In this document: piece by piece, positions 1,024-64,000 of the stretch
Numbering within the stretch: the first letter of the stretch is position 1
Layout: each line of letters begins with the position of its first letter
From: Candidatus Haiyanarchaeum thermophilum
Lineage (GTDB): Archaea > Nanobdellota > Nanobdellia > JAPDLS01 > Haiyanarchaeaceae
DNA length: 64,000 nucleotides
Assembly: GCA_025920425.1 (NCBI GenBank)
Contig: JAPDLS010000001.1
Location: 92,288 to 156,287 of the forward strand
Direction of reading: 5' to 3'
The notes under the pieces: model-generated
Database searches by the model: none
The model's input: only the letters and a program-made list of their open reading frames with translations
What the model was told of the DNA's origin: nothing
Position numbers and translations under genes: made by a program

Positions 1024-1105
1024 CGCCGGGGCTGGGATTCGAACCCAGGAGGGCAAAGCCCACACGCTCTCAAGGCGTGCCCCTTAACCGCTTGGGTACC
1101 CCGGC
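1024..1105 (-). tRNA. tRNA-Ser (anticodon UGA), 82 nt, long variable arm
   Basis: Hand-folded cloverleaf: acceptor GCCGGGG/CCCCGGC, 3-bp D stem, anticodon stem CACGC/GCGTG with loop CTTGAGA, variable stem-loop GGGC-TTT-GCCC, T arm CTGGG-TTCGAAT-CCCAG, discriminator G. Confidence 0.85.
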
Positions 1106-1126: not shown

Positions 1127-1136
1127 AATTTTTAAA
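1127..1136 (-). promoter_or_regulatory. putative TATA box (TTTAAAAATT) about 26 nt upstream of tRNA-Ser(UGA)
   Basis: AT-rich box at canonical archaeal spacing from the tRNA 5' end; the same arrangement recurs upstream of the other two tRNA-Ser genes. Confidence 0.35.
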
Positions 1137-21514: not shown

Positions 21515-23467
21515 ATGGAAGTAGCAATAATGGTGCTCTCCATCTTTTCCATCATCCTTCCTCTATACTTCTATTACTATATCAAAAAGCAAGCGGTAGG
21601 AACTCCAAGAATGGCTAAAATAGCGTCTTTCATCGAAGAGGGAGCAATGGCTTACCTCAAGAGACAATTCCTAGTACTTTCTATTTTCGTAATAATCTTT
21701 TCAGTCCTTCTAGCAATTTTTTTCTCCATTGGGATAGCACTCTCCTATCTCTTAGGAGCATTCCTGTGCAGTTTAGCCAGTCTGCTTGGGATGATGAGTG
21801 CGGTTAAGACAAATGTTAGGGTAGCTCATTTAGCTAGACGTGGTGTGAAGCCCGCCTTCAGGATCGCTTTTTTGGGTGGTTCTATTACTGGATTTTCAAT
21901 TGTAGGTTTGGCCCTATTTGGAATAGCTTTGCTTTACTACTTATTCAAAGACCTACAGTTGATTCTAGGCTTCAGCTTTGGGGCGAGTTCACTCGCACTT
22001 TTCGCCAAGGCTGGTGGAGGAATATATACCAAGACAGCTGACATAAGCGCAGACTTAGTAGGCAAGGTGGAGCTGGGGATTCCAGAAGACGATCCTAGAA
22101 ATCCGGCTGTAATCGCAGATAATGTTGGAGATAACGTAGGAGATGTGGCTGGAATGGCTGCAGACCTTATAGATTCCTATATCGCCAGTCTCATTGCTGC
22201 CATGATACTTGGATCAACAATTGGAGTTGCTGAAACTGTTCTTCCTCTACTATATGCGGCTGCAGGACTGCTAGCTTCTTGGCTTGCTGTAGCAATCATC
22301 ATCAGAAAGGATCCTGAGACCATGATGAATTTAGGTACTTTATTCACATGTGTAATCTTCGCCATTTTTTCCTCACTAGCTACTTATCTGCTAAATGTGA
22401 GTTTCAATGTATACTTTGCTATGCTCTCCGGATTGACGGTTGGAGCGATAATGGGAATTACTACGAATTATTTTACATCCATCGATAGAAATCCTGTCAG
22501 GAGAATCGCGAGCTCATCCACCAGCGGAGCAGCCCTAAACATCCTATATGGATTTTCCTATGGAATTATGAGTATAGTGCCATCTTTGATAGGAATTGCC
22601 ATTGCTACTATCTTAGCTTGGAATTTTGCCGGAGTATATGGGATTTCTATGGCTGCAGTAGGATTGCTTAGCATAGTAAGCTGGGTTGTCTCTGGAGATG
22701 CATATGGCCCAATTGTGGATAACTCCAAGGGGATTGCTGAACAATCCAGACTCCCAAAAAAAGTAATAGAAGTATGTGATAGATTAGATTCGATTGGAAA
22801 TACGACCAAAGCTGTAACTAAAGGGTTTGCTATAGGGGCAGCAGCTCTTACCGTACTTTCACTATTTTCAGCCTACTCTGAACTGGTTAAAATAGAGGTG
22901 TTGAGCTTAATTGATCCTCTTGTGATAGCAGGAATATTCATCGGAGCTATGGTTCCTCCACTACTCTCAGCTCTCCTGATCTTGGCTGTAGGTAAAAATT
23001 CAAATAGGATGATAGCTGAGATCAGGAGACAGTTTAGGGAAATTCCAGGATTAGTGGAGGGGAAGGCTAAACCAGATTATGGGAAATGTGTAGATATAGC
23101 CACTAAAGGAGCTTTGTTAGAACTAATGCCTATCTGTCTCATTTCGATTCTGTTCACTTTAGGAGTGGGTTTCCTCCTAGGAAAGGCAGCCTTGGCAGGC
23201 TACCTCGCTGGAAGCATAGTTACTGGAATTATCTTTGCACTCTTCATGGCCAATTCAGGAGGAGCTTGGGATAATGCAAAGAAATTGATTGAGTCAGGAG
23301 AATTTGGAGGGAAGGGTTCTGAAGCCCATAAGGCTGCAGTAATTGGGGATACTGTAGGAGATCCATTCAAAGATACAGCTGGACCATCTTTAAATACTCT
23401 AATCACTGTAATGTCCCTTACTGCCTCTGTCTTTGCCCCCCTGATCTCCGCATTCGCTCTTTTATAG
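21515..23467 (+). CDS. hppA: membrane-bound H+-translocating pyrophosphatase, predicted K+-independent subtype
   Basis: DNVGDNVGD signature, about 15 TM segments, GNTTKA motif with Lys at the K+-dependence position. Confidence 0.9.
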
Positions 23468-23477
23468 ATCTTAAATG

Positions 23478-23485
23478 TTTTAAAC
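23478..23485 (+). promoter_or_regulatory. putative TATA box (TTTTAAAC) about 26 nt upstream of tRNA-Ser(GGA)
   Basis: AT-rich box at canonical spacing from the tRNA 5' end. Confidence 0.35.
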
Positions 23486-23506: not shown

Positions 23507-23588
23507 GCCGGGGTACCCAAGCGGTTAAGGGGCACGCCTGGAGAGCGTGTGGGCTTTGCCCTCCTGGGTTCGAATCCCAGCCCCGGCG
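23507..23588 (+). tRNA. tRNA-Ser (anticodon GGA), 82 nt
   Basis: Same cloverleaf as the gene at 1024..1105; anticodon loop CTGGAGA; differs from the UGA copy only at position 34. Confidence 0.85.
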
Positions 23589-23689: not shown

Positions 23690-24829
23690 CTATCTCGTAA
23701 CCTCAAGCTCCCGCATTTCTTCTAAATATTTCTTCCCATTTCCTTCTAGGAAATATTTTCTGGCCGGTTCTAAGATCTGAATGAGGTAGTTAGCAACAGT
23801 ATCCTTAAGATCCATTGGATGAATTTTTCCTTCCATGTATTCCTTCTCCAAATCTCCAAACACTTTGAATTTCTTCACACCTCCTTTCTTTAAATTCTTA
23901 ACTTGAAACTCTTCCTCTCTTCTACTTAACCATGGAAATATGATATGCTGGGCAATTTCCACTATAGGATTCAACTCAATCTCATTAGGTGGGCAGAAGG
24001 CGCTGCGAATTTTTTTTCTTATCTCCTCCTCACTATCATGGATAAATATAGCACTTTGAGGTCTAGACTTGGACATCTTAATATCTATAATACTCTCTTC
24101 AAATGTTTTCCTATCTCCTCTCTTTCTCGCTTCCAAGATTTTCCTTCTTTGCTCCTCGCTTACATGGATTCCCATTAGAAGATGATGATGTACTGCAACA
24201 GGCTTATATCCAAATTCTTTCCATACTTCAATAGCAATTACATGAGCCTTTCTTTGATCAAGTCCTCCATGAGCCAAGTTTACCCCTAAGCTGAAGATAT
24301 CTGCTACTTGCATCGGTACGTAAATCAACTGGGCAAAGTCAAGTTTTTCCCCCATTTTTCTTCCCATTATTGTTATGCTCCTCATAGCCCTTCCCAAACT
24401 TATTTTCTCACTTACCTTAATCACATTTTCTAGATACTTGAGGCCAAGTTTCCCATAAAATTCAGAGCCTAAGATGAATTTAGTCTTGCTAGGGTCTCCT
24501 CCAATACATTTTAATGAAATCTTGAGGGCTTCTTGGAAATATCCTCCAGCCACTTTTTTGATCACATCCAAATTTCCATTTAACTTCTTGTTGATCCAAG
24601 AATGGTAATCAGCCAAAAATATGGCGGTCTCAATTCCAGCCTCTTGAAAATCTGCCACTTTCCTAAGAGCTACGAGCCCCAAGCCTATATGTACTTCTCC
24701 AGAAATTTCAAACCCTATGTAGTGCCTCAATCTTTCTTTCTTTTCTAAGTATTCTAGTAATTTTTCCTCAGTTAGGATTTCCACAGTAGGAGGCTTCTTG
24801 ATTAACTCCAACATTTCGTGCCGATCCAT
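23690..24829 (-). CDS. tyrS: tyrosyl-tRNA synthetase (class I), divergent, with insertions
   Basis: KMSKS motif present; blocks YVPMQVADI...GGLDQRKAH and HPMDLK match archaeal TyrRS; likely start at the second Met (MDRHEML). Confidence 0.8.
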
Positions 24830-24886
24830 CGATATCACTTTATTCCTCAATTTTTATAAAGTTATTCCTATCAATTAAGATTAGTA

Positions 24887-45601: not shown

Positions 45602-45684
45602 TCCGAAGAGGAAATACTCCTCCTTACTTTAAATTTTTATCCTCTAACCTCCAACATCATTATTTCCCACAAAAGAAATTGGAA

Positions 45685-45804
45685 TCCTGCGGGCCGGATT
45701 TGAACCGGCGATCTTCCGGTAACCGCTGAGTTTTGGTCATCGATACCAATACAGTTACTCCCAACTCTACAGCCGGACGCGTTACCGGGCTACGCTACCG
45801 CAGG
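45685..45804 (-). tRNA. tRNA-Tyr (anticodon GUA) with a canonical-position intron of about 45 nt
   Basis: C1:G72 acceptor pair, D stem GCGT/ACGC, anticodon stem TCCGG/CCGGA with loop CTGTAGA after removing the insertion, T arm GCCGG-TTCAAAT-CCGGC, discriminator A. Confidence 0.8.
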
Positions 45805-50089: not shown

Positions 50090-50177
50090 TGGACCGGCCG
50101 GGACTCGAACCCGGAGCCTTCTCCACTTCCGAGTACCCTCTGCGAAGGAGACGCTCTACCAGTTGAGCTACCGGCCC
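50090..50177 (-). tRNA. tRNA-Ala (anticodon CGC) with a 15-nt intron at position 37/38
   Basis: G3:U70 wobble pair in the acceptor stem, anticodon stem TCTCC/GGAGA, intron with UUCG/CGGA central helix, T arm CCGGG-TTCGAGT-CCCGG. Confidence 0.8.
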
Positions 50178-58354: not shown

Positions 58355-58453
58355 TGGGCCCGGTGGGATTTGAACCCACGACCTACGGTTCTCTTAGATG
58401 TGCGGAACTCGGTCTTATAAGACCGTCGCTCCACCAGGCTAAGCTACGGGCCC
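58355..58453 (-). tRNA. tRNA-Ile with predicted anticodon UAU and a 25-nt intron at position 37/38
   Basis: Acceptor GGGCCCG/CGGGCCC, discriminator A, anticodon stem ACGGT/ACCGT, 5-nt variable loop; intron has a perfect CUUA/UAAG central helix with 3-nt bulges, leaving loop CUUAUAA. Confidence 0.7.
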
Positions 58454-58487: not shown

Positions 58488-59465
58488 TTACTCAAGTCTA
58501 CATTCATAGATCGTCTTATCCTCCCTAATCCTCAAAAATACTGGAGCCCTCAATTTCTTGTCCTTTGTAATTTCCATGCATTTCACCTCACATATATATC
58601 TTGGCTCAACGAAGACCATCTTTTCAGCCATGTTTGGTTCCTCTTCGAAGATCTCAAATGGGTTTTTATCGATTGTAATTGGTTCGAGCATTTCTTTGAG
58701 CTTAGCTAGATCACTCTCACTAAAACCGGTTCCTACTCTCCCAACATATCTCAGCTTTCCCTCATCCAAACATCCGAGCACTAGGGCTCCTAAGTATTTC
58801 TCCCGAATCCCTTCTCCTCTCGTAAAGCCACAGATCACACAGTCCACAGTCTTCGTAGCCTTTATCTTAAGCCAGTACTTAGATCTCTCTCCAATCAGAT
58901 AGGGACTGTCTATCTTCTTAGCCATTATTCCCTCGAAACCTTTCTTTGCCACTTCTTCAAAAAATTTGATCCCACCTCCTATTATGAATCTCGTAAGCTT
59001 CACCCTTTCTCCTTCAGTTACACATTCTCCTAAAATTCTCTTCCTCTCGATAAGTGGGAACTCAAGGAGAGATTTTCCATCTTTATAGAGAATATCAAAT
59101 ATGAAGAGGGTAGCCGGGCTCAATTTGGAGAGAAGTTCTATCCTTAGCTCATCACTTGTGTGTTCCCTCTCCTGCAATTTCCAAAAGTTTGGCTTCTCCC
59201 CATCCAGCACTACGATTTCTCCATCTAGAATTCCTTTATTTCCTAGGAAGGCATTAGGAAGCTCTTTTAATATTTCTGGATATCTCTTCTCAAAGAAGAG
59301 GCCTCTCCTATTGAGGAACTTAACTCTTTCCTTCTCTTTATCTATGTATACGATGGTTCTAGTTCCATCGTATTTTATTTCAAATAAATACTGCTCAGAA
59401 TCAAAAGGCCTAGCTGAAAATGCTAGCATTGGCTTTATCTTCTGATCGAAAAGATCTCCTTCCAT
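58488..59465 (-). CDS. ATP-dependent DNA ligase, small LigD/LigC-like ligase domain
   Basis: Motif I KxDGxR (EIKYDGTR) in a protein of only 325 aa; immediately downstream of the Ku gene. Confidence 0.75.
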   Translation of the reverse strand: MEGDLFDQKIKPMLAFSARPFDSEQYLFEIKYDGTRTIVYIDKEKERVKFLNRRGLFFEKRYPEILKELPNAFLGNKGILDGEIVVLDGEKPNFWKLQEREHTSDELRIELLSKLSPATLFIFDILYKDGKSLLEFPLIERKRILGECVTEGERVKLTRFIIGGGIKFFEEVAKKGFEGIMAKKIDSPYLIGERSKYWLKIKATKTVDCVICGFTRGEGIREKYLGALVLGCLDEGKLRYVGRVGTGFSESDLAKLKEMLEPITIDKNPFEIFEEEPNMAEKMVFVEPRYICEVKCMEITKDKKLRAPVFLRIREDKTIYECRLE

Positions 59466-60260
59466 TTAGCTGATCTGAGATACTTTCTTTTTCTTCTTTT
59501 CCAACAACTCCAAACTGCTTTTGAGAGCATCTACCAATGATTCAGTTACGATCTCTTCCTTCTCCTCCTTGGAAATAAATTCTCTCCCTTCCACCTTAGC
59601 TTTGATAAGTTCCTTGACCTTTTCACTAAATTCATCTTTAAACTTAGTGATATCGAATTCACTACTCAACTTCTGAATGAGCATTTGAGCTAACTTCAGT
59701 TCTTCCTCGCTTACCACTACCAACTGCTTCATTTCAGGAATCTCCTCCAGAGGCTTTACTTCAGAAAGATAATGAAGAATGTGCATAAGCAAACCATCCT
59801 TGTATGGCCTCAAGGCTACGAGATATTCCTTATTTCGCATGACTACCTTACCTATTGCCACTTTATTCGTAAGTCTTAGGGCCTGTACGAATAAGCTAAA
59901 TGCTTTGGCTCCTAGTTCCTGGGGCACCAAATAGTAGCTCTTCTCAAAGTAGATGGGATCTATTTGGGCTGGATCCACAAATTGTTTGATTTCTATTGTC
60001 TTTGTGGTCTTCAATTTAATCTTTTCAAGATCACTTCTTTCCACTACTACATACTGATCTTTGCTTATCTTGTACCCTTTCTTTATTTCATCCCACGAGA
60101 TCTCCCTATTGCAAACCGGGCACCAGCGTTTATGCTCTATAGGATGACCCTCCCTACAGAGATTCTTAAATTTTATGCCTGTACTCTCAGTAGCTACATA
60201 TACTTTAACCGGAATGTTGATCAGGGAGAAGGAAATACTCCCAGCCCAAATAGCTTTCAT
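59466..60260 (-). CDS. ku: Ku protein, bacterial-type (non-homologous end joining)
   Basis: Bacterial-Ku N-terminal signature MKAIWAGSISFSLINIPVKVYVA and core DPIYFEKSYYLVP. Confidence 0.8.
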   Translation of the reverse strand: MKAIWAGSISFSLINIPVKVYVATESTGIKFKNLCREGHPIEHKRWCPVCNREISWDEIKKGYKISKDQYVVVERSDLEKIKLKTTKTIEIKQFVDPAQIDPIYFEKSYYLVPQELGAKAFSLFVQALRLTNKVAIGKVVMRNKEYLVALRPYKDGLLMHILHYLSEVKPLEEIPEMKQLVVVSEEELKLAQMLIQKLSSEFDITKFKDEFSEKVKELIKAKVEGREFISKEEKEEIVTESLVDALKSSLELLEKKKKKVSQIS

Positions 60261-60609: not shown

Positions 60610-61524
60610 TTAAATCTTTATTCGCTTGAAGAGAGATGCTACTAAGATGGGAAGATTAATAGTAGCATCCCCGTAAACTACAGCCTGCTTCGCCCCCTCT
60701 TTTACCTTTCCCCAAGAAATTCCCTCCCTAGAGTGAGCTCCACTCAGGCTACCATCCCATTCAACCGCTGTACTAAGATATACCACATAGTCTAATCCTC
60801 CCTTAAACTGATTCCACCAGATCACATGATGTTTGGAAATTCCTCCCCCTATTACGAGGGCTCCGCTAAGCTTAGCTTTCCATACCAGCTCACTAAGCAG
60901 ATCTTCGTCCTTAAATTGATCTATTCTAAGTTTCTTCCCAAATTCCCAGATATGGTATCCTACAGCCCCATCTGTAAGACCAGGGATTATCATAGGTATC
61001 CTATTCCTGAAACACCAGTAAAGGATCGAGTCCTCATTTCCTATAAACTCTCCTAGTTTCCAGCAGAGCTCATAGGTGCTAAGCTCCTTATCAACCGTTA
61101 ATCCTTTGATGAACTCTCTCATCTTTTCCTCAATAATTATTCCATAGCTCTCATTTGGAATGAAGACGTTTCCCAATCTGCAAATTCCCTTCCTCCTCAA
61201 TTCAGAGTCATCAGTAAAAAAGCTCCCGTGAAAATACTCCTTGAAACTTCTAGCTAGATCATGATCAAGAGTACCACATGTGGTAATTATCACATCGAAC
61301 AATTTTCTCCTCACGAGTTCTCTTATTATTCCCCTACACCCAGTAGCTATTATGCATGCTGGAAAAGATAGAAATTTCAAGCAATCCTTTTGCTTTATCA
61401 TCTCTTCCAAAATATCTACAGCTTCTCCAAGTTCCTTTGCCATAAATCCTCCGGAAGCCTTCAGCTCCCTCAATAACTCGTCCACATCATGTTTTATCTC
61501 AATATCCTTCACTGGAATTTGCAT
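60610..61524 (-). CDS. dys: deoxyhypusine synthase
   Basis: Conserved blocks DVIITTCG, IPGLTDGAVG, GGGISKHH and DGSLSGA. Confidence 0.8.
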   Translation of the reverse strand: MQIPVKDIEIKHDVDELLRELKASGGFMAKELGEAVDILEEMIKQKDCLKFLSFPACIIATGCRGIIRELVRRKLFDVIITTCGTLDHDLARSFKEYFHGSFFTDDSELRRKGICRLGNVFIPNESYGIIIEEKMREFIKGLTVDKELSTYELCWKLGEFIGNEDSILYWCFRNRIPMIIPGLTDGAVGYHIWEFGKKLRIDQFKDEDLLSELVWKAKLSGALVIGGGISKHHVIWWNQFKGGLDYVVYLSTAVEWDGSLSGAHSREGISWGKVKEGAKQAVVYGDATINLPILVASLFKRIKI

Positions 61525-61570: not shown

Positions 61571-61578
61571 TTTATTTA
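61571..61578 (+). promoter_or_regulatory. putative TATA box (TTTATTTA) about 27 nt upstream of tRNA-Ser(GCU)
   Basis: AT-rich box at canonical spacing from the tRNA 5' end. Confidence 0.35.
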
Positions 61579-61601: not shown

Positions 61602-61683
61602 GCCGGGGTACCCAAGCGGTTAAGGGGCACGCCTGCTAAGCGTGTGGGCTTTGCCCTCCTGGGTTCGAATCCCAGCCCCGGCG
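61602..61683 (+). tRNA. tRNA-Ser (anticodon GCU), 82 nt
   Basis: Same body as the other two tRNA-Ser genes; anticodon loop CTGCTAA; differs only at positions 35-37. Confidence 0.85.
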
Positions 61684-62296: not shown

Positions 62297-63130
62297 ATGG
62301 TAACCAAAAAAGTTTGGGCTAAAGAACCTAGACCCGATTTTTGTTTGGTACGGGTGCCTTCTTACCTAGGTAAGAAATATTCAATGGTTTTATTTGGGAA
62401 ATGTAATTTTCGGTGTAAATTTTGCTTCGAGAAAGGAGATAAAGCTGACGAGAAAGGAGTACTCCCGGATGCAAGATTAATGGATTTCAGTGAGCTGGAG
62501 GAATTCGTAAGAAGAGAAGCCAGCGCTGGGAAGCCAATAAAAATAACAGGGGGGGAACCTTCACTCTATCCTGATGAAACTATTCAGTTAATTAAAATAG
62601 CTAAATCCCAGAACGTATTCACACAGGTAGATGTAAACGGTTCTCTTCCTGATGTGTGTGAGGAGTTAGCAAAATATGTGGATTCTATTGGGTTAGATAT
62701 AAAAGGTAATGAAAAAAACATAGAGTACTTGACAGGGGTCAATAAGAAGATAAGTCTTGACGCCCCACTCGAGACACTTCATCGAGCAGAAAAATTTCCA
62801 TGTTTCGTAGAGTTTAAGACAGTAATGTTTGATTTTACAGACATTGATCATTTAGAATGGTTGTATAGTCATTTACCTAAAAAGGCTTTTTGGGAGCTTA
62901 AGCAGTATAGGCCCCATGAGGGAGTAGAAAGAACTCCAAAACAAATAGATCTGAGGCCTGCAAGCAAAGAACAGATATTACATCTAATGGATGAAATGTG
63001 TAGAAGACATCCTGATTTAGAAGACAGAATGGTAGCAATAATAGGGTCAGCCAAAGATTATAGAAACTATTACTGCCCAGGTGGGAAGAACCTACTTGAG
63101 AAATTTTTGGGTGTTGGAAATATCCAATGA
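62297..63130 (+). CDS. radical SAM protein (activating-enzyme-like, COG1180-type)
   Basis: CNFRCKFC cluster near the N-terminus and ITGGEPSLYP SAM-binding block. Confidence 0.6.
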   Translation: MVTKKVWAKEPRPDFCLVRVPSYLGKKYSMVLFGKCNFRCKFCFEKGDKADEKGVLPDARLMDFSELEEFVRREASAGKPIKITGGEPSLYPDETIQLIKIAKSQNVFTQVDVNGSLPDVCEELAKYVDSIGLDIKGNEKNIEYLTGVNKKISLDAPLETLHRAEKFPCFVEFKTVMFDFTDIDHLEWLYSHLPKKAFWELKQYRPHEGVERTPKQIDLRPASKEQILHLMDEMCRRHPDLEDRMVAIIGSAKDYRNYYCPGGKNLLEKFLGVGNIQ

Positions 63131-63936
63131 AAGTAAATCCCATAGCGGATACGGATTTCATAATTTTCTTTAAAACAACTCAGGAGGAAAAAGTGAAAAA
63201 AATAGAAAGTGTTTTAGAAAAGTTTAATTTACTCGATCAGTTCAATAACAAGAGAGTTTTTATCAAACCCAATCTTGTCTCAATGGAACCGTTCCCAACC
63301 ACTACAGATCCAAGAGTTCTCGACCTCCTTTTAAATAAGCTAAAAAAAATTTGTAAAGAAATCCTAGTTGGGGATCTTCCAGCTCAGAGGGGTATAAAAA
63401 TTGAGGAACATCCTCTAGTGAAGGTAACTCGCCAGCACGAGGTTAAATTTACAAACTTTTTAGATACGGAACTATCTCAAATTACAATCGATGGGGAGAG
63501 TGTGAAAATTTACACATTGGCTACAACCTTTGATAGAATAATTTCACTGCCAGTACTTAAAGAACATAAAGTTTGTAGGATGACTTTTTCTCTAAAGAAT
63601 AATGTTGGCTTCGTGGAGAGGGATTATAGGAATTTGCTTCACAAAAATGTAAGCCTCCTGAATAGGACGATAGCTGTGCTTTCTACTTTCTTTAAGCCTT
63701 CGTTGGTAATTGGAGATGCTTCTAAGATTATGGTAGAAGCTCAAGAGGTAAGATGGGGTGGAAGGGAAAGGGAGCTTGGCTTTTTCTTCATCAGCAATAA
63801 TCCCGTAGAGCTAGATATCTTCGCATCTCAATTTTTAAATTTATCCTACCAAGACGTACCTTATCTAATTGAGAGTATAAAAATTTGGGGGAGAAAGGAG
63901 TGTGTAATAAAAGATGTCACAGAGGATTTCCACTAA
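63127..63936 (+). CDS. DUF362-like domain protein
   Basis: N-terminal block RVFIKPNLVS...TTDPRVL resembles the DUF362 family; start overlaps the radical SAM gene by 4 nt. Confidence 0.45.
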   Translation: MKVNPIADTDFIIFFKTTQEEKVKKIESVLEKFNLLDQFNNKRVFIKPNLVSMEPFPTTTDPRVLDLLLNKLKKICKEILVGDLPAQRGIKIEEHPLVKVTRQHEVKFTNFLDTELSQITIDGESVKIYTLATTFDRIISLPVLKEHKVCRMTFSLKNNVGFVERDYRNLLHKNVSLLNRTIAVLSTFFKPSLVIGDASKIMVEAQEVRWGGRERELGFFFISNNPVELDIFASQFLNLSYQDVPYLIESIKIWGRKECVIKDVTEDFH

Positions 63937-64000
63937 ATGGGAAGAAAGATTGAGGAGAGTGAAGGAGTTGTGGGAGAGTGGTTTTTATGAAAAGATGGAT

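Follow-up and report, generated by a model that had tools for sequence, protein, structure and literature searches.

How can three serine tRNA genes, spaced 22 kb and 38 kb apart and serving two unrelated codon boxes (UCN and AGY), carry one and the same body? The genes lie in a 64,000-nucleotide stretch of archaeal DNA, referred to here as the window, and were recovered by both ARAGORN and Rfam (RF00005) exactly where the initial annotation had located them, with the anticodons TGA, GGA and GCT:

1024..1105, minus strand: tRNA-Ser(UGA), 82 nt, called by ARAGORN and scored at 57.1 bits by the Rfam tRNA model; cloverleaf with a 4-bp variable arm
23507..23588, plus strand: tRNA-Ser(GGA), with the same 82-nt body as the UGA gene (ARAGORN, Rfam)
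61602..61683, plus strand: tRNA-Ser(GCU), with the same 82-nt body, A37 replacing G37 (ARAGORN, Rfam)

Their RF00005 scores range from 56.6 to 58.8 bits against a gathering score of 29. All three are class II tRNAs with a 14-nt variable region, a G73 and no encoded CCA; the 3′ end reads ...CCCCGGC-G, while the class II tRNA-Leu(UAA) of the same genome carries A73. The minimum free energy (MFE) fold of the UGA and GGA genes includes the acceptor, D, anticodon and T arms and a variable arm (4 bp, 3-nt loop), and that of tRNA-Ser(GCU) is an alternative fold even though its body is identical. A degenerate class II tRNA pattern matched these three sites only in the window and gave 0 matches in 100 shuffles, and no CGA isoacceptor was found in the window, whose serine set consists of the three isoacceptors listed. 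The window has a G+C content of about 40% and codes for archaeal RpoA′, aEF-2, RtcB, Cbf5, deoxyhypusine synthase (DHS) and TyrRS; proteins identical to its own are labelled 'Candidatus Nanoarchaeia' or 'Parvarchaeota' at NCBI (metagenome-assembled genomes, MAGs), and the nearest relatives are MAGs labelled Woesearchaeota, Nanoarchaeota and Aenigmarchaeota. The host thus belongs to the uncultured DPANN archaea, and few of its close relatives have been sequenced.

When the 82-nt genes were compared base by base, TGA and GGA differed at position 34, TGA and GCT at 34-37, and GGA and GCT at 35-37, with no difference anywhere else; the identity that had been claimed outside positions 34-37, including the 2 nt past the discriminator, is therefore real. 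The anticodon and the base that follows it read UGA-G, GGA-G and GCU-A, so that position 37 is a G in the two UCN readers and an A in the AGY reader, and this small island is flanked by perfectly identical blocks of 33 nt and 45 nt. The likeness ends abruptly at the gene boundaries. Outside the genes, a single nucleotide on the 5′ side (A) and two on the 3′ side (TC) are shared and none further, BLAST matches between the loci measure 85 nt, and over 150 nt of flank the ungapped identity is 23-30%, which is the chance level; whether identity extended into the flanks had been raised as a check, and it does not go beyond -1/+2. The neighbours differ as well. The UGA gene lies directly downstream of cbf5 (1138-2136), the GGA gene is flanked by the genes for an H+-pyrophosphatase (21515-23467) and a TyrRS (tyrS, 23690-24850), and the GCU gene is divergent from the DHS gene (60610-61524).

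The initial annotation had also noticed a TATA-like box upstream of each gene, and such boxes do occur at the following places:

1131..1136, minus strand: TTTAAA box of the archaeal TATA (box A) type, starting at -31 of tRNA-Ser(UGA)
23479..23484, plus strand: TTTAAA box, starting at -28 of tRNA-Ser(GGA)
61571..61576, plus strand: TTTATT box, starting at -31 of tRNA-Ser(GCU)

They are generic to the tRNA genes of this genome, as 9 out of 9 tRNA genes examined have a TTTAWW motif with its first base at -35 to -28, compared with 2.8% of random positions. The TTTAWW upstream of the tRNA-Ser genes is the ordinary archaeal box A and is not specific to serine. Since each gene has a box of its own, each is predicted to form its own transcription unit.

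Both codon boxes need a decoder in this genome, given that AGY codons make up 44% and UCG 5.6% of its serine codons. Seryl-tRNA synthetase (SerRS) does not read the anticodon; serine identity being independent of it, one body is functionally allowed for any serine anticodon. The modifications expected at position 37 are m1G at G37 of the UCN readers and t6A at A37 of the AGY reader. Anticodon shifts are reportedly rare in archaea.

In order to place the window genes among those of relatives, we distinguished lineage A (the window species), a relative A′ (contig L124, from run SRR32459162, with a Cbf5 89% identical) and a sister lineage B (GCA_964386445.1 / ERZ25515786), represented by L125/L122 for Ser(GGA) and by L001/L002 for Ser(GCU). 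The two B loci, the only tRNA-Ser loci recovered from this lineage, come from different records and samples, and their origin in a single genome is unproven. Proteins of B are 45-86% identical to those of the window, the core genes 68-86%. The two B genes, and the number of differences outside positions 34-37 in each comparison, are:

L125 5051-5134: B tRNA-Ser(GGA), behind cbf5; the same gene occurs in L122
L001 8581-8663: B tRNA-Ser(GCU), near the DHS gene; the same gene occurs in L002
A with A, the three window genes: 0 differences
A with B GGA: 3 differences
A with B GCU: 7 differences
B GGA with B GCU: 4 differences

The differences that separate A from B are C16T, an additional A in the variable loop and T56G. 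Both B genes have T16, the variable arm TGGGCTTATGCCCGC and G56, whereas all three window genes have C16, the variable arm TGGGCTTTGCCCTC and T56. Comparing tRNA-Ser sets with those of related genomes, as the initial annotation had suggested, thus revealed that the GGA and GCU genes of the sister lineage share three body changes of their own. Whichever lineage changed, the same three events, one of them an indel, have to be accounted for in two or three separate genes, which argues for concerted evolution and goes beyond what constraint alone would produce. Paralogues within a genome being closer than orthologues between genomes is, as far as sequence comparison can tell, the pattern of concerted evolution. 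That tRNA bodies drift over this split is seen in the single-copy tRNA-Gly(GCC), whose A and B versions are unlike at about 6 of 73 positions; three genes evolving independently would not be expected to show no difference at all. Homogenisation has not gone to completion in every gene, since B GCU retains four private changes, all in the D-arm, of which the one at 10-25 is compensatory.

Relatives of the TyrRS (67-72% identity, L131-L134) have no tRNA-Ser beside tyrS, and the B counterpart of the pyrophosphatase/TyrRS site was not found; near the genes for relatives of the DHS (68% identity, L140-L143) no tRNA-Ser was found, so that no outgroup polarises the changes between A and B. A metagenome scan with a clade-specific pattern yielded two contigs only, and a scan of viral contigs gave no match. 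In two of the TyrRS relatives (71% identity), a tRNA-Leu(GAG) and an untyped tRNA lie just upstream of tyrS (L131 4383-4656 and L132 673-946); the second tRNA, for which ARAGORN calls a 4-base 'attt' anticodon, probably contains an intron.

The surroundings of the genes, mapped by searching the window and its extensions with lineage-B genes (tblastn), are arranged as follows:

A, UGA: SecY...Cbf5 on the 5′ side; a metallophosphatase on the 3′ side
A, GCU: ligase-Ku-DHS on the 5′ side; a 7.7-kb radical-SAM cluster and then DUF116-tRNAGly on the 3′ side
A, GGA: H+-PPase on the 5′ side; TyrRS and then PfkB-GlgA-GDE-S10-EF1A on the 3′ side
B, GGA: SecY...Cbf5-methyltransferase on the 5′ side; MazG and then DUF116-tRNAGly on the 3′ side
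B, GCU: ligase-Ku-DHS-rSAM on the 5′ side; two small genes and then PfkB-GlgA-GDE-S10-EF1A on the 3′ side

The GCU gene adjoins the DHS-Ku-ligase block in both lineages, so this site should be older than the split and older than the homogenised sequence that it now carries. At the UGA and GGA loci, A and B have just one flank in common, and every B locus combines the 5′ neighbourhood of one A tRNA-Ser with the 3′ neighbourhood of another. Behind SecY...Cbf5 stands the UGA gene in A and the GGA gene in B, where an extra methyltransferase gene lies in between, and the 3′ flanks differ. The genes between the tRNA and the conserved blocks also differ between A and B, with TyrRS at one place where B has AcT and a gene of 293 aa, and the 7.7-kb cluster at another where B has MazG. 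Such a re-assortment of flanks between lineages suggests crossovers within or next to the tRNA-Ser genes, with breakpoints that are placed to within one or two genes, that is, near the tRNA-Ser genes, a position inside them being unproven. As the UGA gene is inverted relative to GGA and GCU, inversions are possible too.

Taken together, these observations make it probable that the three genes are functional serine tRNA genes at old sites, homogenised by ectopic gene conversion, with selection sparing positions 34-37 and with occasional crossovers that rearrange the chromosome. The three chromosomal sites would all be old and separately transcribed, and a single tRNA body could serve both the UCN and the AGY boxes because SerRS is blind to the anticodon. 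Recurrent homologous recombination among the three genes, in the form of ectopic gene conversion, would keep the bodies identical, and selection would preserve only 34-36 and 37, removing those convertants that lost an anticodon. Base 37 would follow the first base of the codon, with G37 for UCN (the tRNA-Tyr of the window has it as well) and A37 for AGY. Occasional crossovers in the 33-nt and 45-nt blocks would rearrange the chromosome and leave tRNA-Ser genes at synteny breakpoints. The identity, the unrelated flanks, the separate promoter boxes, the lineage-specific changes common to paralogues and the re-assorted flanks are observed, and from there we infer the recombination mechanism; the modifications at position 37 are those expected on general grounds, and the three tRNAs are presumed to be expressed and charged.

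A stronger and more doubtful version, which we put forward tentatively, is that the serine tRNA genes act as a recombination hub, where the crossovers in the two identical blocks that keep the bodies uniform also move anticodons between sites (UGA versus GGA behind cbf5) and invert or transpose the segments that lie between the genes, so that gene order and isoacceptor set would co-evolve. If this were true, exchange might even reach across amino-acid identities, considering that tRNA-Leu(UAA) has a similar D-arm and an identical T-arm.

The initial annotation had left the choice between recent duplication with anticodon switching and gene conversion. The non-independent evolution on which both rest has held up, and conversion is favoured by the three lineage-specific changes common to B GGA and B GCU; a recent segmental duplication has not stood, since no flank is shared. 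That one tRNA-Ser was recently copied to new sites, where it acquired new anticodons and a change at 37 while older, divergent isoacceptors were lost, is an unlikely account of the whole, even if it would explain bodies that are perfectly identical and genes only 1 to 4 point changes apart. Anticodon switching is documented, both experimentally and comparatively (PMC3868979 and PMC4981973), and the Cbf5-linked gene, UGA in A and GGA in B, presents just such a one-base difference; however, a crossover inside the tRNA explains that difference equally well as an anticodon shift. Flank identity stops at 1-2 nt, unlike in a segmental duplication, and the GCU gene occupies the same DHS-Ku-ligase setting in A and B, where the landing of a new copy would amount to gene conversion. 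The process would, moreover, have to be repeated independently in B, where GGA and GCU have a common body unlike that of A, and to arrive at GCU three or four positions (34-37) would have to change in concert. Gene conversion is more likely than duplication with later anticodon mutation because of the missing shared flank, the old GCU site and the need for a repeat in B.

Could the genes instead evolve independently, with SerRS, modification enzymes and a streamlined translation apparatus holding every body position in place? The bodies of tRNAs are slow-evolving, and a broad genome scan (acceptor stem GCCGGGG, long arm, T-loop) matched at least 118 loci in all archaeal phyla; among the matches listed, the GCCGGGG stem and the T-loop are common to serine isoacceptors with all four anticodons in many archaeal phyla. 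No close relatives of the host occur among the matches listed, in which four assemblies with two different serine genes are represented. In this very small sample, GCU and NGA genes with the same acceptor stem show 29 and 32 differences in the two genomes for which both kinds were sampled (a Woesearchaeota MAG and a Thermoproteota MAG); two UCN/UCN pairs show 6 and 14. Identity across the codon boxes is thus not the archaeal default, some 30 differences being seen under the same acceptor stem. Furthermore, A and B differ by 3 to 7 positions, an indel included, with the same changes in different isoacceptors of one lineage, and constraint alone is accordingly a very improbable explanation.

The loci themselves are well reproduced. 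The UGA locus recurs with 99.98-100% identity in GCA_025920595.1, GCA_025920555.1 and JGI 3300007999, the GGA locus is represented by the same gene in four long independent contigs from different samples (L135-L138), the GCU locus recurs in GCA_025920625.1 (contig L003), and tRNA-Ser loci are also reproduced in JGI 3300025090. The possibility that had been named against the identity, an assembly duplication with identical flanks, is excluded by the unique flanks and by this recurrence in independent assemblies. Short-read Logan contigs of the window species and of the relative with a Cbf5 89% identical terminate 28-29 nt inside a tRNA-Ser gene, from either side (L124 3917-3944, the ends of L129 and L130 and the start of L139), as is the effect on a k-mer assembler of a genuine repeat that is perfectly identical over 33 and 45 nt. 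That one tRNA-Ser was pasted into three places during assembly, or that true differences between copies were erased in polishing, is hardly conceivable, for although those contig ends confirm that the repeat does disturb assemblers, breaks within the gene are expected of a true repeat, 82 nt is shorter than a read pair, the sequence to either side of each copy is unique, the anticodons differ, and the UGA, GGA and GCU loci were obtained at 99.98-100% identity in several independent assemblies of different samples.

That dispersed tRNA genes evolve in concert through intergenic conversion is textbook knowledge. The classic case comes from S. pombe, with its unlinked serine tRNA genes sup3, sup9 and sup12 (Amstutz et al. 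1985 Cell 40:879, as cited in PMC4981973). As in S. pombe, three unlinked serine genes have unrelated flanks, the homology is confined to the gene and paralogues resemble each other more than orthologues. In contrast to S. pombe, the window copies differ in their anticodon and serve two unrelated codon boxes, so that a 4-nt island would need protection by selection; the host is a DPANN archaeon, and conversion is deduced here from comparison, not from genetic observation. Isoacceptor remolding, or anticodon shift, is described for Drosophila, primates and yeast experimental evolution (PMC4981973 and PMC3868979). It has in common with our case the shared body, the different anticodon and the single amino-acid family, and the UGA/GGA change at the Cbf5 site could be an example that occurred in place. 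However, the window anticodons form a normal, complete working set and not a redundant copy put to a new task, and the UCN/AGY pair requires 3-4 coordinated changes including position 37.

Dispersed repeats such as rRNA genes, tRNA genes or IS elements are a known route of chromosome rearrangement in prokaryotes through recombination. The synteny blocks beside tRNA-Ser are likewise joined differently in the two lineages, but perfect identity extends here over no more than 33 and 45 nt, and the breakpoints are known at the level of genes, not of bases. In Nanoarchaeum equitans and Caldivirga maquilingensis, split tRNAs are said, in work of Randau from 2005 and of Fujishima from 2009, to combine one 3′ half with different 5′ halves and so to yield several isoacceptors. 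These too are isoacceptors of a small archaeal genome with identical body segments, but the window genes are complete, contiguous and intron-free and have their own promoter, and the sharing would be evolutionary (through recombination), not physical. Background on tRNA trans-splicing in N. equitans is given in PMC3491384. Identical UCN/AGY isoacceptors in archaea were not described in the literature retrieved, which dealt in general terms with concerted evolution, remolding and serine identity. What the window adds to the known cases is the identity across both serine codon boxes and the possible link with synteny breakpoints, in poorly sampled archaea.

The window offers a natural example of one tRNA body used for UCN and AGY codons, in which only the anticodon and the modification-determining base 37 differ, and illustrates that the anticodon plays no part in serine identity. 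It would also provide evidence for the concerted evolution of isoacceptor tRNA genes in archaea. Repeats of 82 nt fragment short-read assemblies of DPANN genomes, and trees of tRNA genes from such lineages could not be read as orthology. Should the breakpoint link be true, tRNA paralogues would drive some of the rearrangement in very small, repeat-poor archaeal genomes.

Two other features near tRNA-Ser(GCU) deserve mention. The cluster of about 7.7 kb directly 3′ of tRNA-Ser(GCU) (62297-64000, plus strand, continuing into L003 2202-9228) codes for three radical-SAM proteins, two of them with a SPASM domain, a DUF362 protein, a GFO/IDH oxidoreductase and an asparagine-synthase-like protein. 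Lineage B has the MazG gene alone between a tRNA-Ser and the same DUF116-tRNAGly block, and the cluster may be an insertion beside tRNA-Ser(GCU). The adjacent genes at 58488-60260 (minus strand) have B orthologues (68% and 86% identical) in which Pfam recognises the domains DNA_ligase_A_M and Ku. Few archaea have a Ku-ligase pair, and its presence bears on how a very small genome repairs and recombines its DNA.

Some candidate tRNA genes were reassigned once introns were considered. ARAGORN reported a 'tRNA-Ser(cga)' at 45684-45777 and a 'tRNA-Arg(tcg)', both of which we rejected, the former being tRNA-Tyr(GUA) with a 46-nt intron and the latter tRNA-Ala(CGC) after removal of a 15-nt intron. 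A partial match to the serine body at L126 18656-18773, which could have been a fourth serine gene, was likewise rejected, as it is an intron-containing tRNA-Leu(UAA). Together with a gene that ARAGORN left as 'tRNA-???', the assignments are:

45685-45804, minus strand: tRNA-Tyr(GUA), 46-nt canonical 37/38 intron removed
50090-50177, minus strand: tRNA-Ala(CGC), 15-nt canonical 37/38 intron, G3:U70 and A73
58355-58453, minus strand: tRNA-Ile(UAU), clean after removal of a 25-nt canonical 37/38 intron
L126 18656-18773, plus strand: tRNA-Leu(UAA), class II, with an intron, 47 bits with Rfam, missed by ARAGORN, about 6.5 kb beyond the window start

The tRNA-Leu(UAA) has a T-arm identical to that of the serine body, 96% identity over a 28-nt stretch that covers the T-arm and 3′ acceptor strand, and nearly the same D-arm; what sets it apart is mainly the 3:70 pair, A73 and the arms of the anticodon and the variable region. 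This likeness could be the result of partial homogenisation across amino-acid identities or of common descent. With regard to tRNA-Ile(UAU), most archaea read AUA with a CAU anticodon modified to agmatidine, and a tRNA-Ile(UAU) gene is known from Nanoarchaeum and Korarchaeum.
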